In this document: positions 8,847 to 50,783 of the stretch, piece after piece
How positions within the stretch are numbered: the first letter of the stretch is position 1
How the letters are laid out: each line of letters starts with the position of its first letter
Assembly (NCBI GenBank): GCA_963719465.1
Contig: OY970386.1
Coordinates: 981,789 to 1,045,788, forward strand
Length of the DNA: 64,000 bases
Direction of reading: 5' to 3'
Source of the DNA: an uncultured Chloroflexia bacterium
Lineage (GTDB): Bacteria; Chloroflexota; Dehalococcoidia; DSTF01; JALHUB01
Notes under the pieces: model-generated
What the model was told of the DNA's origin: nothing
What the model saw: the letters and a program-made list of their open reading frames with translations, nothing else
The model's database searches: none
Made by a program: the position numbers and the translations under genes

Positions 8847-9597
8847 TTATTCGATGGCGAAGACGACCTGCACGGTGATATCGACGTCGAGCTGGCCCGT
8901 CTCGATGGGCGTCGACGGCCCGGCACCGGTAGCGGCGCCGAGGGGTGCCATGGCCGGCACGGGCTGAACGTTCGTACCCTCTGAGATGGATATCGGCGCG
9001 CCGAGCTTAACGCCCGCCGTATCGGCGATGCGCTGGGCGCGGGCCTTCGCGTCGGTCACCGCCTCGCCGCGCGCCTGGTCTTGCAGCGTCTCCGGGTTGT
9101 CGATGGTGAAGGTTATGCCCTGTACCTGGACGATGTCGCCGCCGGCCGCCGTCACGTCGTCGAGCACCTTGCTCGTGTTGTCGAACGTCGCGCACCTTGA
9201 CGGTCACTGTGTTGGTCACCCGATAGCCGATCAGCTTCGGCGTTCCGCTCTGCGGGTAGCTGTACTCCGGGGAGATGTCGTACTGGGTCGTCTGGACGTC
9301 CTTCTCATCGACGCCGTCGTTCTTGATGGCGTTGACGACGTTTTGCATGGTGCTGGCCGCATCGTCGCGCGCGTCCTTGACCGTCGCCTTCACCGTGCTG
9401 ACGCCGAGGCTCAACACGGCGGTGTCGGGAACGCCGCTGGCCTTCCCTTCGCCGCTGACGGTGATCCCCTGAGGGGTCGAGCCGCTGTCGGTGGCGGCGA
9501 GGCTCACCTTTTCCGTGCCGCAGGCGCTGCCCAGGGCCGCGAGCAAGCCGAGCCCGAGCAGGCCGACGATTCCGATGTACTTGCTGTTCTTGTTCAT
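8847..9597 (-). pseudogene. SIMPL domain (DUF541/BP26-like) secreted protein, frameshifted
   Basis: N-terminal part (signal peptide, MNKNSKYIGIV...RVTNTVTVKVRDV) is in ORF 9007..9678 and the C-terminal part (TFDNTSKVLDDVTAAGGDIVQVQGITF...) is in ORF 8847..9167. A one-base frame change sits near 9165-9175. AAGGAGAA RBS before the ATG at 9597. Confidence 0.75.
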
Positions 9598-9619
9598 GGC
9601 TGTTCTCCTTCTGAGATAC

Positions 9620-10729
9620 TTATGAGTGCCGGTTTGTCCGTATCCAACAACGTCGCATCCAAAACGCGGAAATGCCAAGGCCGACGAACAGGCCGCCGCC
9701 GATGCCCTCGAGGAGCCACAGCCACAGGTGCGACGACCCCTCGTTCGTCAGCTGGGTTCCAGCCGTCGTCGGCGGGACGCCCGCGGACCCGCCGCCGCTG
9801 GAGGAAGCCGGCCCATTACCCGCGAACGCTTCTTGCGCCGGCGTCGGCATCCCTTCGGACGGCGTGCCTGCGGCGGCCGCGCCGAGTGGCAGAGCCGGCG
9901 TGCCCACCTCCGGCGGCGTCCCCTCCGCGGGAGGCATCCCCGGCTCCCCGACGGGCGGGGGCGGAGCGAACGGCGTGCCCGCTGCCGGCGGCGTCCCCTC
10001 TATGAGAGGCATTGCCGGCGTCCCTCCGGGCGGGAGCAAACCAGACGGCGTGCCTGGAGGCTCCGACGTGACGACGGGCGGCGGCAGGAGCCCCGAGGAC
10101 TCGGCCCCCGGGCTCGTCGCGGTGCCTGGTGTGGCGGGAGGGACGGCAGTCTCGCCCAGGTTGTCGGCCTGTGTGGCCAGCGGAGTCACGGGGGGGACTA
10201 CTCCCGCCACACCAGGCACCGCCTTCGGCTCGTATTGGGGAGTGCCTTCGGCCTGGAGACTGCCGTTCTCCTCCAGAGGCCCTTCTTTGGGGGCCGCGGC
10301 CATCGACTTCTGTGAGGAAGCGGCGGGGACGGACGCCGGTCCACCTCCCTGCCCGCCGCCGCCCGAGACCACAAGATCGGCGCCGAGGGCCACGACGAGC
10401 ACCAGCGCGGCAACAACCGTCGCGCCGCTAAGGCCGAGGTATGCCCACTTCGCGGCCTTTGCCTGCCTGGCGACCTCCGATTCTCGCCGGCGACGCGCTT
10501 CTCCTAGCAGCTCCGGCGACAGCGCGAACGACCGCGGCGCTTTTGCTTCCGGCAGAGCGTTCAGCGTCGCCACGAGCTGCCGCAGCTCATCGAGCCGCTG
10601 GGCGCAGCCGGCGCAGGATCGAAGGTGCGCTTCAACGCGCGGGCGCTTCGACTCGGGAAGGGCTCCGTCGAGGTAGGCGGACAGATCGCTTTCATCTACC
10701 GGATGGCGGCCAAATGCAAAGAGCCTCAC
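9620..10729 (-). CDS. anti-sigma factor, zinc-finger (HxxxCxxC) type, with Pro-rich low-complexity region and C-terminal TM
   Basis: 369 aa. N-terminal HLRSCAGC zf-HC2 motif, a TM helix, and a long GTP/PA-rich repeat region. Sits directly downstream of the ECF sigma factor. Confidence 0.75.
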   Translation of the reverse strand: MRLFAFGRHPVDESDLSAYLDGALPESKRPRVEAHLRSCAGCAQRLDELRQLVATLNALPEAKAPRSFALSPELLGEARRRRESEVARQAKAAKWAYLGLSGATVVAALVLVVALGADLVVSGGGGQGGGPASVPAASSQKSMAAAPKEGPLEENGSLQAEGTPQYEPKAVPGVAGVVPPVTPLATQADNLGETAVPPATPGTATSPGAESSGLLPPPVVTSEPPGTPSGLLPPGGTPAMPLIEGTPPAAGTPFAPPPPVGEPGMPPAEGTPPEVGTPALPLGAAAAGTPSEGMPTPAQEAFAGNGPASSSGGGSAGVPPTTAGTQLTNEGSSHLWLWLLEGIGGGLFVGLGISAFWMRRCWIRTNRHS

Positions 10730-10766
10730 GGTCTTCTCCTCTTCAGGAAGTCGCCGGAAAGCGGCT

Positions 10767-11339
10767 TCAATCAGTAAGACGAAACTGGCTGGGCAAAAGT
10801 TCCCGCTTCTGGAGAAGGCGTTCGCGGAGACGGGCGCGGCCGCGGCTGAGACGCGACTTCACGGTTCCGGGCGAAAGACGGAGGGTCTCCGCTATCTCTT
10901 CGTAGCTGAAGCCCTGCACGTCGCGGAGGACGACGACCGCCCGCTGGTCGAGGGGGAGCGACAGCAGGCCCCACTGGATGTGACGGGCGAGCTCGCCGCG
11001 TTCCGCCGCCTCTTCCGGCGATTCGGACGGGTCGGGCAGGTCGAGGGGCGAATCGTCATCGGACGCATCGTCGAGGGAGAGCTGCGGGTGGCGCGAGCGG
11101 CGGCGCAGCTCATCGGTGCAGGCGTTGACGGCGATGCGCAGCAACCAGGGGCGGAACGCGTCGCTGCGGCAGTGTTCAACGTTTCTGAAGGCGCCTAGGA
11201 ACGTCTCCTGCGTCACGTCTTCTGCGGAGTGCGCCGAGCCGAGCATTCGAAGGCAGACGCTGAAGACGGTATCCTGGTACGCCTCCACGAGGACGTTGAA
11301 GGCGGCGGGATCGCCTTCGCGGCAGCGTCGCAGGAGCAC
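10767..11339 (-). CDS. RNA polymerase ECF sigma-70 factor
   Basis: 190 aa. Sigma-70 region 2 (FLGAFRNVEHCRSDAFRPWLLRIAVN) and region 4 (LSLPLDQRAVVVLRDVQGFSYEEIAETL). The true start may lie slightly upstream. Confidence 0.85.
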   Translation of the reverse strand: MLLRRCREGDPAAFNVLVEAYQDTVFSVCLRMLGSAHSAEDVTQETFLGAFRNVEHCRSDAFRPWLLRIAVNACTDELRRRSRHPQLSLDDASDDDSPLDLPDPSESPEEAAERGELARHIQWGLLSLPLDQRAVVVLRDVQGFSYEEIAETLRLSPGTVKSRLSRGRARLRERLLQKRELLPSQFRLTD

Positions 11340-11523
11340 GCCTTCAGCGAGGTCGGTGAGAGGGCCCTGGCGGGTCAGGATGCACCTCCGCAGATTCGGA
11401 TCGTTTCAACAAGTTTAACAGAATGAGGGTAGACTCTGCCGCCTTCACAGGTTCTAATAGGATGGCCGCCGACTCCGGTCCGGCGTCTTATGGTAACAAT
11501 TCGGCCGCCGGAGAGTTTAGGAT

Positions 11524-12375
11524 GTGGAGGCATGCTATAATCGTGGCAAGGCAATGCTAGGAGAACCTCGCGATAACCTCGTCGAGGAGCCCGAGAAGGC
11601 CGACGACAAGAAGAAAGGGAAGTCTTCTCGACGTTCTTCCGAGGCTTCCTCAAACGACTTCATCTGGTCGACGGAGACGGGCCTGCCGATTGATTACGGC
11701 CCCTGGACTGTGGAGGGGCCCCATCCACCGATTGGAAGGAGGTCTCGATTCTCCGGCGTTGGCAGACTTGTCCGCGATTTCGTCGAGATCGCCATCTTCG
11801 CGCTGCTCCTTTTCATCGGCCTGCGGCTGGTCGTGCAGAACTTCCGCGTCGAAGGGTCGAGCATGGAGGGCACCCTTCACGACGGTCAGCTCATTCTGGT
11901 GAACAAGGCGGCCTACCTGAAGGTGGACTTGGGCTTCCTTGATTTCCTTCCGCTCGTTCATTTCGATGACAGCCCGCATTATCTGTTCGGTGCGCCGCGG
12001 CGCGGCGACGTTATCGTCTTCCGCTTTCCGGATCAGCCGGACCGCGACTTCATCAAACGCGTCATCGCCGTGCCCGGGGAACAGGTGGAGATCCGCGACG
12101 GGCTTGTCTACATCAATGGAAGGCCTCTTGACGAAAAATACATACCGGATAAAGACGAGCACGATTTCGGGCCCGAGCTGGTGCCGGACGGCCAGTACTT
12201 CGTCATGGGGGACAATCGCAACAACAGCTATGATTCGCGCAGCTGGGGATTCGTGCCGGAGGGCAACATTATCGGGCGGGCGTGGGTCTCTTACTGGCCG
12301 TTCAAGTCATTCGGGCTGGTCTCCGATCCCAATATCCAGCCGATGGGGACGGGAACGCAAGGGGCCTCACCTTGA
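11524..12375 (+). CDS. lepB: signal peptidase I
   Basis: 283 aa. S26 motifs: SMEGT (Ser), RGDVIVF, KRVIAVPGE (Lys), GDNRNNSYDSR. Confidence 0.85.
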   Translation: MEACYNRGKAMLGEPRDNLVEEPEKADDKKKGKSSRRSSEASSNDFIWSTETGLPIDYGPWTVEGPHPPIGRRSRFSGVGRLVRDFVEIAIFALLLFIGLRLVVQNFRVEGSSMEGTLHDGQLILVNKAAYLKVDLGFLDFLPLVHFDDSPHYLFGAPRRGDVIVFRFPDQPDRDFIKRVIAVPGEQVEIRDGLVYINGRPLDEKYIPDKDEHDFGPELVPDGQYFVMGDNRNNSYDSRSWGFVPEGNIIGRAWVSYWPFKSFGLVSDPNIQPMGTGTQGASP

Positions 12376-41043: not shown

Positions 41044-42018
41044 ATGAACGGTGACGTTCGTCGATTTCGGCGGCTGCGGGACAGCAACTCAATGCGGCGG
41101 CTCGTGCGGGAGACGAGGCTTTCCCCGGAGGACTTCGTCTACCTGCTGTTCGTCGTGCACGGCAGCGGCGTTCGTAACGCCATCCCATCGATGCCGGGCC
41201 AGTCGCAGCTCTCCGTCGACCAGCTTGCCGCCGAGGCGCGCGAGCTGCGCGAGCTCGGCATTCCCGCCGTCCTCCTCTTCGGCATACCGGCGTCGAAGGA
41301 CGAGCAGGCGTCGGAGGCATACGCGCCGGACGGCATCGTCCAGCAGGCGGTCCGCGCCCTCAAGCAGGCCGACCCGGAACTCCTCGTCATCACGGACGTC
41401 TGCCTCTGCGAGTACACAAGCCACGGCCACTGCGGCATCGTCAAGAACGGCGACGTCGATAACGACGCCACGCTGCCGCTGCTCGCCAAGACGGCGCTCT
41501 CGCACGCCCAGGCCGGCGCCGACATGGTCGCCCCGTCGGCGATGATGGACGGCCAGGTGTCGGCCATCCGCGGGGCGCTCGACGAGAGCGGCTTCTCGCA
41601 GACGCCGATCATGGCCTACGCCGCCAAGTACGCCTCCGCCTTCTACGGGCCGTTCCGCGAGGCGGCGGAGTCGGCGCCGCAGTTCGGCGACCGCTGCGGC
41701 TATCAGATGGACCCGGCGAACGTCCGCGAGGCGTTGCGCGAGATCGAGGGCGATATCGCCGAGGGCGCTGACATTGTGATGGTGAAGCCGGCGCTCGCCT
41801 ACCTGGACGTGCTCGCCCGCGCCCGCCGGCGCTTCGACCTGCCGCTTGCCGCCTATAACGTCAGCGGCGAGTACGCTATGATTAAAGCGGCGTCGGCGAA
41901 CGGCTGGCTCGACGAGAAGCGCGTCGTTCTCGAGGTGCTGACGGCGATCAAGCGGGCCGGCGCGGACGTCATTATCACGTATCACGCCAAGGACGCCGCC
42001 CGCTGGCTGACCGCTTGA
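41044..42018 (+). CDS. hemB: porphobilinogen synthase (delta-aminolevulinic acid dehydratase)
   Basis: Active-site Lys motifs and conserved VKPA and SGEYAM blocks. Confidence 0.9.
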
Positions 42019-42057
42019 GCGCCTGCGGTGCGTCCGGTGCCAAACCTGAAAAAGCTA

Positions 42058-42899
42058 TGTCTGATCTTCCCACCCGCCCACCCGAGATGCGTTGGGATTC
42101 GGGGGACACCCCCGAACCCCCGGAAGAGAGGGATCCCCTCTCTTCACTCTCCCTTTCTCGGCGTGACGGCATTCGCGCCATCGCCTTCGACTGCTACGGC
42201 ACGCTGATCGACTTCACCGACCAGGCGTTCATCCGCGCCTACCACGAGATCTGCGTTCAGCAGGGCATCGCCTGCGACGGCCGGACGCTCTGGGAGAAGT
42301 GGATGGACATCTGGCGGCGCATGTCGTCCGTGGTCAGCGACTATGAAAGTCCGCGCAACGAGCCCACCTCCTGGACCCGCACGATGGCTAGCTTCCGACC
42401 TTATAGTGAAGCCTGGCCGGAGCATTTCGAGGCCTGCTTCCGCGAGCTCGGCGTTCGCGGGGACGGCGTCGCTGCCTACGCGCACGTCCGCAACGGACTG
42501 GCAGACGCGCCGGCGTTCGCGGAAACGGCCGAGGTGCTGTCGGCGCTGAAGTCGCGCTACCACCTGGGCATCCTCTCCAACGCCGACGACGACTTTCTGA
42601 ACGCCTGTCTCGAGAAGAACGGCCTGCACGTCGAGTTCCAGCTCATCGTCACGTCCGAGAGCGCGGGCGTCTACAAGCCGCGGCAGGAGATATTCCACTC
42701 GTTCGTCGAAGCGAGCGGCTTCCAGCGACACGAGGTGCTATACGTTGGCGACAGCCAGTCGGCGGACGTGCTGGGCGCCAAGAACGCGGGCCTGCCCGTA
42801 GCCTGGGTCAACCGCGACGGTTCGCCGCTCAGGGAAGGCGTGCCGCAGCCAGACCACGAAGTCGCCTCGCTGCGCGAGCTTCTCGGAATCTTATCGTAG
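42058..42899 (+). CDS. HAD-superfamily hydrolase (haloacid dehalogenase type II-like)
   Basis: Motif I FDCYGTL, motif III K and motif IV GDSQSAD. The true start is probably downstream of the repeat element, so the N-terminal Pro-rich extension is doubtful. Confidence 0.7.
42064..42140 (-). repeat. dispersed GC-rich hairpin repeat, copy 2 of 3 (inverted)
   Basis: Its reverse complement aligns with copies at 30976 and 53123 (ATCTTCCCACCCGCCC...GGGGGACACCCCCGAACCCC). Lies just 3' of the hemB stop and overlaps the annotated N-terminal extension of the HAD ORF. Confidence 0.65.
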
Positions 42900-42907
42900 C
42901 CGGGACT

Positions 42908-44245
42908 TTGCAGTTTCGGCGCCGGTCCGTTTCGACCCGGGTCGATGGAATGATGCCGCTGTCCCATGACCGTTCGCACGAAGTCTTCCAGCGCTCGCTG
43001 CGCTACCTGGCCGGCGGCGTCGACAGCCCCGTCCGCGCCTTCCGAGCCGTCGGCGGCGAGCCCATCGTTGTCGCCCGCGGCGAAGGGCCGTACCTGTTCG
43101 ACGTGGATGGCAATCGCTACGTCGACTACGTCTGTTCCTGGGGCGCGCTCATCCTCGGGCACGCGCACGCCGCCGTCGTCGCAGCGGTCCGGAAGGCGGC
43201 GGAGCGCGGCAGCAGCTACGGCGCGCCGACGGAGCCGGAGGCCGACCTGGCGCAGCTCATCGTCGAAGCCGTGCCGTCGATTGAGACGGTCCGCTTCGTG
43301 AACTCCGGTACCGAGGCCACGATGTCGGCGCTGCGCCTGGCCCGCGCCTTCAGCAGACGCGACAAGATCGTCAAGTTCGAGGGCGCCTATCACGGGCACG
43401 CCGACGGTCTGCTCGTGCGCGCCGGCTCGGGCGTGGCGACGCTGGCCCTTCCCGACAGCCCGGGTGTGCCGGCTTCATACGCCCAGGAAACCCTCATCGC
43501 CCGCTACAACAACGTCGAGAGCGTCGAGCGCCTGTTCGAACGATACGCCGGCGAGATAGCGGCGGTCATCGTCGAGCCGGTCGCCGGCAACATGGGCGTC
43601 GTGCCTCCCCAGCCAGGCTTTCTGGCGTCGCTGCGCGAGATCACGCGGTGTGAGGGCGCGCTGCTCATCTTCGACGAGGTGATTACGGGCTTCCGCGTCG
43701 CATTCGGCGGCGCTCAGTCGCTCTACGGGATCGTGCCGGACTTGACGTGCCTTGGGAAGATCATCGGCGGTGGACTGCCGGTCGGAGCCTACGGCGGCCG
43801 GCGCGACGTGATGGCGATGCTGGCGCCGGAAGGCCCCGTCTACCAGGCGGGGACGCTCTCCGGCAACCCGCTGGCGATGGCGGCGGGACTGGCGACGCTG
43901 CGGGAGCTGCAGTCGCCGGGCTTCTATGAGCGGTTGGAGACGCTTTCGTGGAAGCTGGCGGAGGGAATTGCTGTGGCAGCCAAGCGCGCTGGCGTACCGC
44001 TTCAGCTAAATCGCGTCGGCTCGATGTTCACGCCCTTCTTCGTCGACAGCCCGGTCAGCGATTATGGGAGCGCCCGCCGCGCCGACACCGAACGCTACGC
44101 AAGCTTCTTCCACGCCATGCTGGAGCGCGGCGTCTACCTGCCGCCGTCGCAGTTCGAAGCAGCATTTGTGTCCTCAGCCCACGGGGATGAGCAGATCGAC
44201 GCCACAATCGCGGCCTTCCAGCAGGCGCTGACGGAGCTGTCCTAG
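42908..44245 (+). CDS. hemL: glutamate-1-semialdehyde 2,1-aminomutase
   Basis: Class-III aminotransferase fold with the PLP Lys motif (CLGKIIGGG). Confidence 0.9.
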
Positions 44246-44279: not shown

Positions 44280-44308
44280 TTGACAATCCCCCGTTCTGGT
44301 GCTAAATT
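44280..44308 (+). promoter_or_regulatory. sigma-70-type promoter (TTGACA-17-TAAATT)
   Basis: TTGACA at 44280..44285. TAAATT at 44303..44308, 17-nt spacer. Confidence 0.5.
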
Positions 44309-44317
44309 GCCATCAGG

Positions 44318-44498
44318 CCTAGCTCGTCAGTCGCGGTGGGCGGCGACGAGACGGGGGAACCGAAGGCAGCATGGGGTGTACTCGCTTGGAGCGAGAGGGC
44401 AGTCTCTTTCAGCCCTAACCCGACAGCTAACCTCGTAGGCCACTGAAAGAGGGCTGGTTCCAAACAAGGCGGCCGGAGCCAACTCCTCCGGCTTTTTT
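44318..44498 (+). promoter_or_regulatory. candidate cyclic-di-AMP riboswitch (ydaO/kimA class) with intrinsic terminator, upstream of otsA
   Basis: Contains ACGGGGGAACCGAAGG, GGGGUGUACUC and CCCUAACCCGACAGCUAACCUCGUAGGC. I recall these as the conserved ACGGGGA / GGGGUGAAUCC / CCGAACCCGACAGCUAACC blocks of ydaO RNAs. A long-range closing helix (GGAACC...GGUUCC) is present. Terminator GCCGGAG-CCAA-CTCCGGC plus T6 at 44472..44498. Confidence 0.6.
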
Positions 44499-44607
44499 GC
44501 ACCCTCGTGTCCTGCCTGAATGGCGGACAGGCCCGGCCCGGTCGGTTGCGTGTATCTATATCGCTAAGGTGGGAGCGATACCCCGCGACATGCAAAAGGA
44601 GGCCGAC

Positions 44608-46191
44608 ATGGCACCTCGCGATCTCTCCGACTTTCCGCCCTTATCCGTCATCCGGCGCAGTTCAAGTCCACTCATCGTCGTCAGCAACCGCGGCCCCTTC
44701 GAGCACTATCGAGACGCCGGCGGTGTCCTGGCACGGAGGCCCACGAGCGGGGGCGTCGCCGTCGCGCTCTCCAGCATTTTCGGGCGGCAGGAGTTGACGT
44801 GGGTCGTCGGCGCTGTTGGCGATGTTGACCGCGAGCTGGCAATGCGCGACTTCCGCCGCTTTTCTTTTGGCGACGGGCATCGCCTCTGTTTCGCGTCGAC
44901 GGATTCGCACTCATACGATCTCTTCTATCGCACCTTCAGCAATCCGATTCTCTGGTTCCTGCAGCACTCGCTATGGCATCTGCTCGACGGACGGCCGAAC
45001 TTGAGGCAAGAGATCGTGCGGTCCTGGGAGGAAGGCTACGTGCCGGTAAACGCGGCCTTCGCCGCCGCGGTCTGCGACGAGATCGATGACGCGCGCGGGC
45101 CCGCCCGAGTCATGCTCCACGACTACCATCTCTACCTGGCACCACTACTCATCCGCGAGCGTCACCCGGAAGCTCAGCTCCAGCACTTCTGCCACATCCC
45201 CTGGCCGGGGCCGGAGGCCTGGCGCGTGCTGCCGGAATACGTCATCGCCCGCATCTGCGAGGGCATGCTGGCCAACGACAGCGTCGCTTTCCAGACGGAG
45301 GAATCGAAGCGCAACTTCGCGCTGACCTGCCTCGCATATCTTCCTGACACGACAGTCGATCTGGCAGAGACTGCGATCAGCCACCGGGAACGGTCGACTG
45401 GTATCTTTGCCAATCCGATATCGGTGGACGTGTTCGACCTGAGGCGGAAGCTCATCTCGCCGAAAGTGCAGGCCTACCGGCAGGCGCTGGTTGGCGAAGA
45501 TGACATAAGGACAATCGTTTGCGTCGACCGTCTGGACCCGGCAAAGAATGTCGCCGGCGCGCTGAAGGCGTTTGACCTCCTCCTTCAGCGCCATCCCGAA
45601 TGGTCGGGCAAGGTCCGGATGCTCGCCTTCCTGGTGCCGTCGCGGGTAGCGATCCCCGAGTACCAGACGTATCGGGACAAGGTCTTTACGCTCGTTGACG
45701 AGATAAACTCGCGACACGGCGACGGGCGTTGGCAGCCGCTAACGGTCTTCTACGAACAGAACCGAACCCAGGCGCTTGCCGGCTTGAGCCTATACGACGT
45801 GCTCATCGCCAACTCCATAGCCGACGGCATGAACCTTGTGGCCAAGGAAGGGCCCGTCTTGAACGGGCGCGACGGCGTCCTGGTGCTTTCGACGGCGGTG
45901 GGTGCGGCGCGCGAACTCGGCGGCGCAGCGCTGACCGTCGAGGCCGGGGACATCGAAGGGACCACCGAAGCGCTCAAACAGGCGCTGTCGATGGACGCTT
46001 CGGAGCGCCGGCAGCGGGCGCGGCTGCTGCGACAGACCATCGCGCGCCACGACATCAACGATTGGTTGGAGACGCAGATGGCGGCGTTCGGCGAACGTTC
46101 GGCGGAGATCCTTCCGGTGCCCGCATCGCTGCTCACCCGCCCGCCCTCCCGCGAGGAGCCACCCGCGCTCATCGCCGGCGGAATCTCTTGA
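44608..46191 (+). CDS. otsA: alpha,alpha-trehalose-phosphate synthase (UDP-forming), GT20
   Basis: ATG after AAGGAGG. GT20 N-terminal block VVSNRGPF and the overall length. Confidence 0.85.
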   Translation: MAPRDLSDFPPLSVIRRSSSPLIVVSNRGPFEHYRDAGGVLARRPTSGGVAVALSSIFGRQELTWVVGAVGDVDRELAMRDFRRFSFGDGHRLCFASTDSHSYDLFYRTFSNPILWFLQHSLWHLLDGRPNLRQEIVRSWEEGYVPVNAAFAAAVCDEIDDARGPARVMLHDYHLYLAPLLIRERHPEAQLQHFCHIPWPGPEAWRVLPEYVIARICEGMLANDSVAFQTEESKRNFALTCLAYLPDTTVDLAETAISHRERSTGIFANPISVDVFDLRRKLISPKVQAYRQALVGEDDIRTIVCVDRLDPAKNVAGALKAFDLLLQRHPEWSGKVRMLAFLVPSRVAIPEYQTYRDKVFTLVDEINSRHGDGRWQPLTVFYEQNRTQALAGLSLYDVLIANSIADGMNLVAKEGPVLNGRDGVLVLSTAVGAARELGGAALTVEAGDIEGTTEALKQALSMDASERRQRARLLRQTIARHDINDWLETQMAAFGERSAEILPVPASLLTRPPSREEPPALIAGGIS

Positions 46192-46273
46192 CACTCTGAT
46201 AAGTGCTCTCTAGAATAACTGGTGGGCGGCGCCTCCCGTCCGCGCTGGCGGAGCGAGGGCCGCTTATCTATAA

Positions 46274-47905
<1,632 letters not shown>

Positions 47906-48104: not shown

Positions 48105-49385
48105 ATGAAGCCAGGCGGCGAACTTAACATTGCTGAGCTAGAGACCAGGACGCGCGAGGACCTGATGGAGATCGCCAAGGAGCTTGGAATCTCCGGCTAC
48201 AGCGCACTCAAGAAGCAGGACCTTATCTTCCGCCTGCTCCAGGCCCAGACGGAGCGGGAGGGCAACATATTCAGCGGCGGCGTGCTGGAGATCGTCGACG
48301 ACGGCTACGGCTTCCTCCGCGGCGAAAGCCTCCTGCCCTCGCTGAACGACGTTTACGTGTCGCAGTCGCAGATCCGACGCTTCGCGCTGCGCACGGGCGA
48401 CTATGTGACCGGCCAGGTCCGTCCCCCGAAGGACAGCGAGCGCTACTACGGGCTGCTTCGCGTGGAGGCGGTGAACGGCCTCGACCCGGAGGTCGCGAAG
48501 GGCCGTCCTTACTTCGAGAGCTTGACAGCCATCTTCCCCAACCGCCTCTTCAACCTGGAGACGACGCCGGACAAGCTTTCCGCGCGCGTCATCAACCTTA
48601 TCTCGCCCATCGGTCGCGGCCAGCGCGGCCTTATTGTCTCGCCGCCGAAAGCGGGCAAGACGTTCCTGCTGAAGGCGATAGCCAACGGCATAACGGCCAA
48701 CTACAACGACGTGCACCTCATGGTTCTGCTCATCGGCGAGCGGCCGGAGGAAGTGACGGACATGCGACGCTCCGTCAACGGCGAAGTCATCGCGTCCACC
48801 TTCGACGAGCCGGTGGAGGACCACACGCGCGTCGCCGACATGGGGCTGGAGCGCGCGAAGAGGCTGGTCGAGTGCGGCACGGACGTTGTCGTCCTGCTGG
48901 ACAGCATCACGCGTCTCACCCGCGCCTACAACCTGGCGATGCCGACGAGCGGTCGCACGCTTTCCGGCGGCATCGACCCGATCGCTCTCCACCCGCCGAA
49001 GCGCTTCTTCGGCGCCGCCCGCAACACCGAGGAGAGCGGCAGCCTCACGATCATTGGCACCTGTCTGGTCGACACCGGCAGCCGCATGGACGAGGTGATC
49101 TACGAGGAGTTCAAGGGCACGGGTAACATGGAGATCCACCTCGACCGCCGCCTGGCCGAACGACGCATGTGGCCGGCAATCGATATCCACCGCAGCGGCA
49201 CCCGTCGCGAAGAGCTGCTGCTGGACGAGGAGACGCTACGTCAGGTCTGGCTCGTGCGCCGAATGACGTTGATGATCAGCCAGAACGCGCCCAATCCCAC
49301 CGAGGCGACGGAACGGCTGCTGGAGCGGCTGGCGCGGACCCGCAGTAATGACGAGTTCCTGGCGACTCTGAAGCAAGAAATCTAA
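48105..49385 (+). CDS. rho: transcription termination factor Rho
   Basis: N-terminal RNA-binding (CSD-like) domain. Walker [17 protein letters not shown]- and R-loops. Confidence 0.95.
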
Positions 49386-49775
49386 ATCCACCCGTCGCAC
49401 TCAACAACCGCCGTTACGTTCGGAGAGACCGAAACGGGGTGAAATTTGAGCCTTTTTGCCCTTGACATGAGTTAAAGGCGTCTGGTAGGGTGTCGGGGAT
49501 GTTGCGTATGCCGGGTGGAGGAGGCAGGCTCTCTGAGTTGGGCTGACAAGTAGGAGGCGAGGAGCATCAGAGGCACGCTCAGCCCGCGGAATCCTGAGCC
49601 GAAAGACAGGCTCGGGCCGCGACCAATCAGTCTGGGACGACAGCTCCCCACCGCTGCCGCGTTTCGCAGGAAATACAGGCCTTACGTTCACTCCTTCATT
49701 CTGGGCCTGGCAGCGATCGTTCTTCTATCTGTTTCTCTCTCTCAACATTTCCAACTCCCCACTCCCAACGTCCCC

Positions 49776-50783
49776 ATGGCCCTGGAGAGGGCGCCGGTCT
49801 CTCAGACAACCGCGTCCACTCCGGTGTCAGAGGACGCCGTTCTGCAGGCATCCGTCCTTCCTTTGACGCTCGTCACGGCGCAGTCGACGGAAACGCCGGC
49901 GCCGCTGGTGCGCGGAACGGCCCTTCCCGCTGACGACACGACGATGATGGCCGCCAGCATCCTGCCAACTCCAGCGCCCACGCCGGTGCCGATCTACGTC
50001 ATCTATGCGGTCCAGGACGGCGACACCGTCGACGCCCTGGCCAGCCGCTACGGGATCTCGTCGGACTCGATTCTATGGAACAACACCGACCTCGAGGATG
50101 CGGACACGCTGGCGGTGGGCCAGTTCCTGCGCATCCCCTCGAGCGACGGCATCATCTACGATGTCAAGCTCGGCGACACTTTGAGCGATGTCGCCAGTCG
50201 CTACGGCGTCAACGTTGCGTCCATTACCGGATTCGCGGGCAACCATTTGCTGAGCGCCGACGATATCTCCGAGCATCAGGTCATCTTCATACCGAACGGC
50301 ACGATGCCGGCGCCACCGCCGCCGGCACCGGCGCCCACGCCTGAACCGGCCAGCAGCGGCAACGGCGGCGGCTCAGCTCCCGCGTCGCCGTCAGAACCGT
50401 CCGCGCCATCGTCATCAGGCTTCATCTGGCCGGTCAACGGCCCGATCTCCAGCTACTTTGGGCCGTCGCACCCGCTGGGCATCGATATCGACCAGTACAA
50501 CAGTCCGGGAGCGCCAATCCACGCGGCGGCCGCGGGCATCGTGACCTTCGCCGGTGGCGACCCCTGCTGCTCCTACGGGCTGTACGTCGTCGTCAACCAC
50601 CAGAACGGCTTCGAGACCCTCTACGCCCACATGGCGTCGATTGCCGTGACGCAAGGCCAGTATGTGAATCAGGGAGACGTCCTGGGATACGTGGGCATTA
50701 CCGGCCGTTCAACCGGCTATCACCTGCACTTCGAAGTTCACTACAACGGGGCGGTAGTAAACCCGCTCGACTACTTGCCTTAG
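49776..50783 (+). CDS. LysM domain-containing M23 family metallopeptidase
   Basis: Two LysM repeats (YAVQDGDTVDALASRYG, YDVKLGDTLSDVASRYG). M23 motifs HxxxD...HLHFE (AHMASI..., GYHLHFEV). Confidence 0.85.
   Translation: MALERAPVSQTTASTPVSEDAVLQASVLPLTLVTAQSTETPAPLVRGTALPADDTTMMAASILPTPAPTPVPIYVIYAVQDGDTVDALASRYGISSDSILWNNTDLEDADTLAVGQFLRIPSSDGIIYDVKLGDTLSDVASRYGVNVASITGFAGNHLLSADDISEHQVIFIPNGTMPAPPPPAPAPTPEPASSGNGGGSAPASPSEPSAPSSSGFIWPVNGPISSYFGPSHPLGIDIDQYNSPGAPIHAAAAGIVTFAGGDPCCSYGLYVVVNHQNGFETLYAHMASIAVTQGQYVNQGDVLGYVGITGRSTGYHLHFEVHYNGAVVNPLDYLP

Follow-up and report, generated by a model that had tools for sequence, protein, structure and literature searches.

A predicted c-di-AMP riboswitch in the leader of a gene for a probable trehalose-6-phosphate synthase of Chloroflexota

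Cyclic di-AMP (c-di-AMP) is known mainly for restricting the import of potassium and of preformed compatible solutes, via protein receptors and via riboswitches of transporter genes. Does its direct control also extend to the synthesis of such solutes? The question is raised by a 64-kb stretch of Chloroflexota DNA (contig OY970386.1, positions 981,789 to 1,045,788; hereafter the window, in whose coordinates all positions are given). In the spacer between hemL and a gene of glycosyltransferase family GT20, an initial annotation had proposed a c-di-AMP riboswitch of the ydaO/kimA class controlling otsA. We know of almost no experimental c-di-AMP biology in Chloroflexota. The analysis presented here makes it likely that the spacer encodes a transcription-terminating c-di-AMP riboswitch, placed in the 5' leader of a GT20 gene whose product most likely makes trehalose-6-phosphate.

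Identity and anatomy of the aptamer

The whole window was scanned with the covariance models of Rfam 15. The c-di-AMP riboswitch family RF00379 matched the forward strand at 44306-44456 with 77.6 bits (gathering score 38, E 2.6e-16) and over model positions 1-134 of 134, a significant full-length match that bears out the class first proposed. No second RF00379 copy was found in the window, either by the Rfam scan or with a clade-specific model, and the only other Rfam match there is one tRNA. On re-reading, every sequence element named in the initial annotation was found in the hemL-GT20 spacer. Its three conserved blocks, ACGGGGGAACCGAAGG (44351-66), GGGGTGTACTC (44373-83) and CCCGACAGCTAACCTCGTAGGC (44419-40), fit the ydaO fold: they lie at the model positions of helix P3, of the P5/J5-6 region and of the 3' strands of J5/3, P3 and P1. 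The core blocks ACGGGGGAACC, GGGGUG and CCCG.CAGCUAACCUCGUAGGC and the first A of junction J1/2 are likewise present in the window. By family membership, the spacer RNA is a genuine c-di-AMP riboswitch.

One assignment had to be corrected. The pair GGAACC/GGUUCC had been taken for the closing helix, a role that the Rfam alignment gives to the GGCC strands of P1 (Table 1). GGAACC (44356-61) instead comprises the last base pair of P3, a GAAC junction and the first base of a small hairpin placed between P3 and P5 in the Rfam structure; GGUUCC (44456-61) lies beyond the aptamer, immediately after the pseudoknot strand. In the Thermoanaerobacter tengcongensis crystal, the variable stretch that separates P3 from P5 is flexible and mostly unresolved (PMC5393176).

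The canonical structure, including the pseudoknot, was then evaluated on ten aptamers. Paired bases occupied 95.7% of the cells, and compensatory changes were found at 14 of the 38 pairs, in P1, P2, P6, P7 and the pseudoknot. None of 500 shuffles matched the observed values, and slid controls were 36-60% paired. The two three-way junctions (P1-P2-P3 and P5-P6-P7) are thus both backed by covariation. Over 10 sequences, the pseudoknot alone was paired in 98.8% of the cells, with one compensatory change, C-G to U-A, in the related locus L013. Its topology is that of the solved c-di-AMP riboswitches, in which the pseudoknot joins the P7 loop to the 3' end (PMC11963983). Folding of the whole 312-nucleotide (nt) leader gave no useful structure (z = -1.2). 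With the exception of two junction nucleotides, which are weighed below, the aptamer has the defining features of RF00379 that can be tested in silico, and we infer from its sequence that the window RNA would bind c-di-AMP.

Table 1. Coordinates of the features of the riboswitch-GT20 locus in the window
Feature	Position	Strand	Sequence or description	Basis
Sigma-70-type promoter	44280..44308	+	-35 TTGACA 44280-85, 17-nt spacer, TG extension 44300-01, -10 TAAATT 44303-08	
c-di-AMP riboswitch aptamer (RF00379)	44316..44452	+		Rfam alignment and covariation
P1	44316-19 with 44438-41	+	GGCC with GGCC	Rfam alignment
P2	44323-28 with 44345-50	+	extra inner stem 44330-34 with 44340-44	
P3	44351-56 with 44431-36	+	ACGGGG with CCUCGU	
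Variable "bubble" between P3 and P5	44357-73	+		
P5	44374-76 with 44419-21	+	GGG with CCC	
P6	44381-85 with 44391-95	+		
P7	44397-400 with 44412-15	+	GGGC with GCCC	
Pseudoknot	44404-11 with 44444-51	+	P7 loop CUCUUUCA with 3' strand UGAAAGAG, 8 bp	
Proposed antiterminator, 5' strand	44448..44461	+	AGAGGGCUGGUUCC, end of the pseudoknot strand plus linker, holds GGUUCC 44456-61	
Proposed antiterminator, 3' strand	44475-87	+	end of the terminator 5' arm, loop and start of the 3' arm	
Intrinsic terminator	44471..44498	+	stem GGCCGGAG/CUCCGGCU, loop CCAACUC, then U6	
Leader 3' of the terminator	44499..44607	+	hairpin TATCGCT/AGCGATA 44559-65 with 44574-80; Shine-Dalgarno AAGGAGG 44596-602, 5 nt before ATG	
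GT20 glycosyltransferase, probable trehalose-6-phosphate synthase (OtsA-like)	44608..46191	+	527 amino acids (aa)	Pfam, NCBIfam and solved-structure matches

Expression platform and proposed direction of the switch

The TTGACA-17-TAAATT promoter described for the spacer is present and has a TG extension as well. It scored 10/12 in a promoter scan that returned two promoter-like sites in a 2.5-kb region, against 0.2 expected from shuffles. The promoter ends about 7 nt 5' of P1, and transcription is predicted to start at about 44314-16, at the first base of this helix. The same TTGACA-17-(TG)-10 element, at a similar distance from P1, was found in 9/9 related leaders (the window, L001-L007 and L009, which make up the set of nine aligned leaders), where 7-11 nt separate the promoter from P1. 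The whole unit of promoter, aptamer, pseudoknot-coupled antiterminator and terminator occupies about 220 nt.

The terminator, a hairpin followed by six T residues, was recovered as described: GGCCGGAG/CTCCGGCT span 44471-93 and the T-run 44493-98. The gap of about 110 nt that had been given between terminator and start codon is 109 nt when counted from the T-run, with the ATG at 44608; the start coordinate had been off by one. A GC-rich hairpin with a U-run stands at the same place 3' of the aptamer in all nine aligned leaders. In L014 the hairpin precedes an interrupted U-rich run, UUUCUUUU; the features are weaker in L013, where only a weak UUUGUC follows the hairpin, and in the GT20-proximal aptamer copy of L025, which has a weaker stem.

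The terminator would compete with an antiterminator whose 5' strand starts in the last bases of the pseudoknot strand. When the expression platform was folded by itself with a free tail, the lowest-energy structure was this antiterminator in 6/9 leaders, and in 9/9 when the transcript stopped short of the final bases of the terminator's 3' arm. When the 10 nt of the pseudoknot strand were masked, which mimics their capture in the ligand-bound pseudoknot, the lowest-energy fold became the terminator in all nine. In each of the nine leaders the antiterminator also beat controls with shuffled linkers, only 1-24 of 300 shuffles being as stable. Different linkers go with matching terminator loops: GAGGGCAGA with UCUAGUCCUC in L007, and GAGGAUG with CAUCCUC in L014. 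As judged from these alignments, the antiterminator complementarity is conserved although the sequences of the lineages differ. Two other pairings were discarded. An earlier antiterminator candidate, GGUUCC with GGAGCC alone, was too weak and not conserved in L005 and L006, and was replaced by the present helix, which includes GAGGG of the pseudoknot strand; pairing of the terminator 3' arm with ACGGGGGAA in P3 was put down to the G-rich and C-rich composition of the strands and to the long range involved.

The direction of the switch is suggested by these folds together with the second aptamer copy of L025. In this copy the pseudoknot strand, CUGAAGGAG, is itself the Shine-Dalgarno sequence, 6 nt before the ATG of a 66-aa open reading frame (ORF), so that a ligand-driven pseudoknot must repress there. 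Single-molecule and reporter work identified the pseudoknot as the ligand-sensitive output element (PMC11963983), and natural c-di-AMP riboswitches are OFF switches (PMC11963983, PMC9960051). Folding models and the L025 copy thus point to a terminator-based OFF switch in the window as well.

The proposed mechanism would run as follows. Transcription from the 44280-44308 promoter would start at about 44315, and the aptamer would adopt the fold with two three-way junctions that characterises the class. With c-di-AMP bound, UGAAAGAG (44444-51) would be locked in the pseudoknot with the P7 loop; the hairpin at 44471-93 and its U6 would form, RNA polymerase would terminate and no GT20 transcript would be made. 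When c-di-AMP is low, 44448-61 would pair with 44475-87, the terminator would be blocked and the GT20 enzyme would be made. Low c-di-AMP may then be the physiological signal for osmolyte accumulation, by analogy with other phyla, where low c-di-AMP goes with a need to raise internal osmolytes (PMC10243994, PMC5919688).

The GT20 gene and its riboswitch in related genomes

The downstream gene had been named otsA. Its product matches PF00982 with 320.1 bits (gathering score 32.5) over profile positions 3-470 of 473. Its best solved-structure match is OtsA of Streptomyces venezuelae (5lqd, E 4.5e-68), and the 13 best are all trehalose-6-phosphate synthases. The motifs SNRGP, Y..F.N..LWF, DYHL, HF.H.PWP, VDR.D..KN, PSR and DGMNLVAKE align with 5lqd and are invariant in 8 clade members. 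These matches indicate that the protein is probably a trehalose-6-phosphate synthase of a divergent clade; the name otsA is better replaced by GT20, probable trehalose-6-phosphate synthase, as the protein falls under the OtsA equivalog cut-off (see below). Some riboswitch-linked GT20 proteins are longer, about 800-880 aa, with a C-terminal DUF5667 domain (PF18915) fused (P0013, encoded at L006 3905-6514, and P0014, P0015, P0020 and P0021).

RF00379 matches at or above the gathering score were found directly upstream of, and co-oriented with, GT20 genes in 11 other Chloroflexota or metagenome loci. The encoded proteins are 49-78% identical to that of the window, and the loci represent at least five gene neighbourhoods; the homologs are annotated as Chloroflexota metagenome-assembled genomes. 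In L001-L004 (76-78% identity, 61.7-70.4 bits) the end of hemL lies upstream of the promoter, and in L005 (66%, 92.2 bits) and L006 (64%, 82.4 bits) hemB, a HAD hydrolase gene and hemL lie upstream and pyrG downstream. Neighbouring genes are entirely different in L007 (60%, 90.8 bits), which has a SIMPL gene upstream, and in L009 (52%, 96.4 bits), L013 (51%, 103.5 bits) and L014 (51%, 92.9 bits), whose neighbours are unrelated. The last locus, L025 (49%), is a metagenome contig with three aptamers (95.3, 88.1 and 94.2 bits). Since the flanks differ while the riboswitch stays with GT20, the element tracks GT20 and not hemL or pyrG, which supports control of GT20.

No RF00379 match was present at the GT20 loci L008, L011, L012 and L015, and none at 79 other, more distant GT20 loci (29-48% identity) in the metagenome scan. 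In a neighbour-joining tree the riboswitch-free L008, L012 and L015 form one tight clade, and L011 stands apart, adjoining the window clade. The riboswitch-bearing genes sit on several deep branches, which suggests that the association between riboswitch and GT20 is old. L015 and L004 belong to one assembly, and the 2.31-Mb contig that contains the window carries a GT20 paralog, P0038, beyond the window's limits; one genome can therefore hold one riboswitch-controlled and one riboswitch-free GT20. The riboswitch-free paralogs of L008, L012 and L015 are 53-54% identical. They lie in a conserved cluster with genes for a large PAS/GAF/HisKA-response-regulator protein, a DinB-like protein, an iron superoxide dismutase (Fe-SOD) and a glyoxalase, and with small ORFs that include a 66-67-aa CxxC protein. 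The context of P0038, as deduced from these three orthologs, suggests a second trehalose-phosphate synthase under different control, possibly linked to oxidative or other stress.

In L025 (516-1322, Ga0209640_10058864) the three RF00379 aptamers stand in tandem before GT20. Their sequences differ, which rules out a repeat created by assembly. A mini-ORF of 7 codons comes after the first copy, and the 66-aa ORF of the middle copy lies at 972-1172; a relationship of this ORF to the small zinc-ribbon ORFs beside the riboswitch-less paralog was considered and dropped, as no convincing similarity was seen. Such a triple tandem would give a steep response and would be a natural case for cooperative stacking of this riboswitch class.

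Downstream of the terminator, the leader (44499-44607) contains conserved stretches of its own: ACCCTC directly after the T-run, CCGGCCCG.TCGGTT, the hairpin at 44559-80, variable in its loop, and CCCCGCGACAT.C..AAGGAGGCCGAC. If it forms, a helix CGGCC/GGCCG would mask the bases just 3' of the Shine-Dalgarno sequence. In this interval Rfam gave only noise at E values up to 10, the promoter scan found no sigma-70-like promoter, and a search for a second structured element returned an RNAalifold structure that has no covariation and is broken in L007.

Upstream of the spacer lie hemB (41044-42018), a HAD hydrolase gene (42015-42899) and hemL (42908-44245); GT20 is followed by pyrG (46274-47905) and rho (48105-49385). 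A near-consensus promoter-like site, TTGACA-17-TAGAAT (11/12), at 46188-46216 overlaps the GT20 stop codon just 5' of pyrG, and no terminator-like site was found between GT20 and pyrG. Probably pyrG has its own promoter and the riboswitch governs mainly GT20. A cluster of genes for an S26 signal peptidase, an ECF sigma factor, a zf-HC2 anti-sigma factor and a SIMPL protein lies in the window at 9007-12375, 33 kb from the riboswitch; in L007 (538-3685) the same cluster adjoins the riboswitch-GT20-pyrG unit, at the place taken by hemB-HAD-hemL in the window, L005 and L006. Genes for cell-wall hydrolases are among the classic targets of c-di-AMP riboswitches. After rho, in the region 49386-50783, a gap of 390 nt precedes a gene with LysM and peptidase M23 domains (49776-50783), before which neither Rfam nor the clade-specific model detected an aptamer.

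Alternative readings, known systems and significance

Several observations weigh against an OFF switch in front of a trehalose-6-phosphate synthase gene. In the window, L001 and L007 the free-tail equilibrium fold is still the terminator; the antiterminator wins there only when the transcript is truncated, so that the argument for these leaders is kinetic. Furthermore, lowest-energy folds of the whole leader and the RNAalifold consensus pair GGAACC(G) (44356-62) with (U)GGUUCC (44455-61) alongside the terminator. The helix measures 7-9 bp in the window and in L001-L006, and L014 has it in a compensated form (GGGACCC:GGGUUUC). It would run across P1 and P3 and mask the P3/P5 junction, which forms binding site 1 (PMC11963983); if formed in the free state, it is predicted to compete with the antiterminator. 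The pairing may be an alternative free-state structure, or a by-product of the likeness of GGAACC to GGAGCC of the terminator. It would suit an ON switch, in which ligand-free GGUUCC (44456-61) pairs with GGAACC (44356-61) and termination is the default, until c-di-AMP frees GGUUCC for GGAGCC (44475-80) and allows read-through; high potassium and c-di-AMP would then trigger the replacement of potassium by trehalose. We consider such a switch unlikely. The helix has no counterpart in L007, L009 or L013, nor in two of L025's three copies. The inner part of the antiterminator, with 6-7 bp and a 13-nt loop, is by itself far less stable than the terminator, to which all nine leaders revert when the pseudoknot strand is masked. 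The Shine-Dalgarno pseudoknot strand of the middle L025 copy implies OFF logic in the same lineage, and every characterised natural member of the class is OFF (PMC9960051, PMC11963983). The two deviating junctions raise a different doubt. The window reads UGUAC in J5/6 and CUAAC in J7/5 (44377-81, 44416-18), where the consensus is UGAAU and CGAAC. A pyrimidine replaces the highly conserved J5/6 A (UGAAU to UG[U/C]A) in 14/14 clade aptamers, compared at the same positions in the window, L001-L014 and L025 loci, and J7/5 reads C[U/C]AAC across the clade, with U or C for G. The J5/6 change may replace a ligand-contacting adenine: the binding-site list of a solved structure includes the first J5/6 A (PMC7288161), by a residue-number alignment whose mapping is uncertain. 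Pattern scans of viral contigs for unrelated ydaO riboswitches, made with regard to J5/6 variation, gave chance matches only. That these changes alter the specificity or affinity of the ydaO fold, tuning it to a related nucleotide or to a markedly shifted c-di-AMP range, appears highly improbable given the very high scores of the standard model (up to 103.5 bits), the intactness of all remaining conserved blocks and an osmolyte gene context that suits c-di-AMP biology. A broader proposal starts from the J5/6 pyrimidine in all 14 copies, or from the GGAACC:GGUUCC helix that would occlude binding site 1 in many of them. It holds that the GT20-linked aptamers of Chloroflexota are a functional ydaO variant and not a plain OFF switch, either an ON switch at high c-di-AMP and potassium or an aptamer of retuned range or specificity; this, too, we find improbable.

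The remaining objections concern the enzyme and its own leader. The GT20 protein lies under the NCBIfam OtsA equivalog cut-offs (TIGR02400, 295.3 vs 564.85 bits; PRK14501, 314.6 vs 634; PRK10117, 162.6 vs 759), none of the window's 54 ORFs encodes an OtsB-type phosphatase (PF02358), and its 64 kb hold no gene for a diadenylate cyclase. The riboswitch could thus be as described and the enzyme make another phosphorylated glucoside, for example glucosylglycerol-phosphate, the osmolyte not being trehalose. This would agree with the missing OtsB neighbour, with the divergent Chloroflexota clade of the protein, with a score under the trusted cut-off of every NCBIfam equivalog model and with a match of 189.6 bits to the GgpS model TIGR02398 (cut-off 569). 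We nevertheless rate it as rather unlikely, since OtsA models score about 100 bits above GgpS and all 13 top matches among solved structures are trehalose-6-phosphate synthases; the source annotations of the homologs also name this enzyme, which is weak evidence because they are automatic. Finally, the leader at 44499-44607 is strongly conserved in L001-L006, well above the expectation from 64-78% protein identity. This excess over the neutral expectation suggests a second function, and the strong terminator is the equilibrium fold of the window sequence. Both features would fit a promoter-aptamer-terminator unit that mainly produces a stand-alone small RNA of about 185 nt, binding for instance c-di-AMP, with GT20 expressed from a separate start or control in the 109-nt leader. 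Such an arrangement seems very unlikely, for that leader holds no sigma-70-like promoter, the aptamer lies directly upstream of and co-oriented with GT20 in five different neighbourhoods, L007, L009, L013 and L014 keep the riboswitch without the conserved second leader, and the conserved antiterminator would be needless for a constitutively terminated small RNA.

The transcription-terminating OFF switch, which we regard as the likely reading, can be compared with known members of the class. It resembles the prototype of the class, the Bacillus subtilis ydaO/kimA leader, in which RF00379 in the 5' leader is followed by an intrinsic terminator and the ligand favours termination (PMC9960051, PMC11963983), and which is part of osmotic and potassium homeostasis, as the window element would be. 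The B. subtilis element, however, controls a potassium importer in a Firmicutes host, whereas that of the window precedes a biosynthetic glycosyltransferase gene in Chloroflexota and belongs to a clade in which pyrimidines replace the A of J5/6 and the G of J7/5. The Thermoanaerobacter pseudethanolicus riboCdA, known from a solved structure and single-molecule work, shares the P1-P3 and P5-P7 three-way junctions and the pseudoknot between P7 loop and 3' end, its ligand-sensitive output element (PMC11963983), but there the pseudoknot strand is the Shine-Dalgarno sequence of a translational OFF switch, while in the window it is the 5' part of an antiterminator and the predicted control is transcriptional; the translational design recurs in copy 2 of the related L025. 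Riboswitches of Streptomyces rpfA and Corynebacterium nlpC belong to the same family, occur in high-GC non-Firmicute hosts and are OFF switches. They precede cell-wall hydrolase genes and have no canonical terminator (PMC10117811, PMC9960051), unlike the window element with its textbook terminator and osmolyte-synthesis target. As to the enzyme, the OtsA proteins of S. venezuelae (5lqd), Escherichia coli (1gz5/1uqu) and mycobacteria (5jij) have the same full-length GT20 fold and the same acceptor and donor motifs; identity is about 30-40%, and the window protein differs in falling under the equivalog cut-offs and in being encoded outside any otsBA operon. Control of those OtsA genes by a second-messenger-sensing RNA is not described in the searchable literature.

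Genes associated with the ydaO class encode potassium and amino-acid transporters, osmoprotectant transporters and cell-wall enzymes (PMC9960051, PMC7266159). The "synthesis and transport of osmoprotectants" is also listed among them, in general terms and after Barrick 2004 and Block 2010 (PMC7288161). Trehalose synthesis, put forward in the initial annotation as an unusual but coherent target, is therefore coherent but less unusual than supposed. The searchable full texts contain neither a link between this riboswitch and trehalose-phosphate synthase nor a description in Chloroflexota; a listing in the supplements of Block 2010 or Nelson 2013 is possible. The target is coherent and modestly new, and it leaves the picture of the riboswitch class unchanged.

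In this group of Chloroflexota the osmotic second messenger probably controls the synthesis of a compatible solute and not only uptake. The compact, well-defined leader makes a convenient substrate for termination assays, and the presence of the riboswitch would be a simple marker for predicting the osmotic-stress enzyme between two GT20 paralogs. If the proposed reading is true, direct control by c-di-AMP would reach de novo compatible-solute synthesis, in Chloroflexota.

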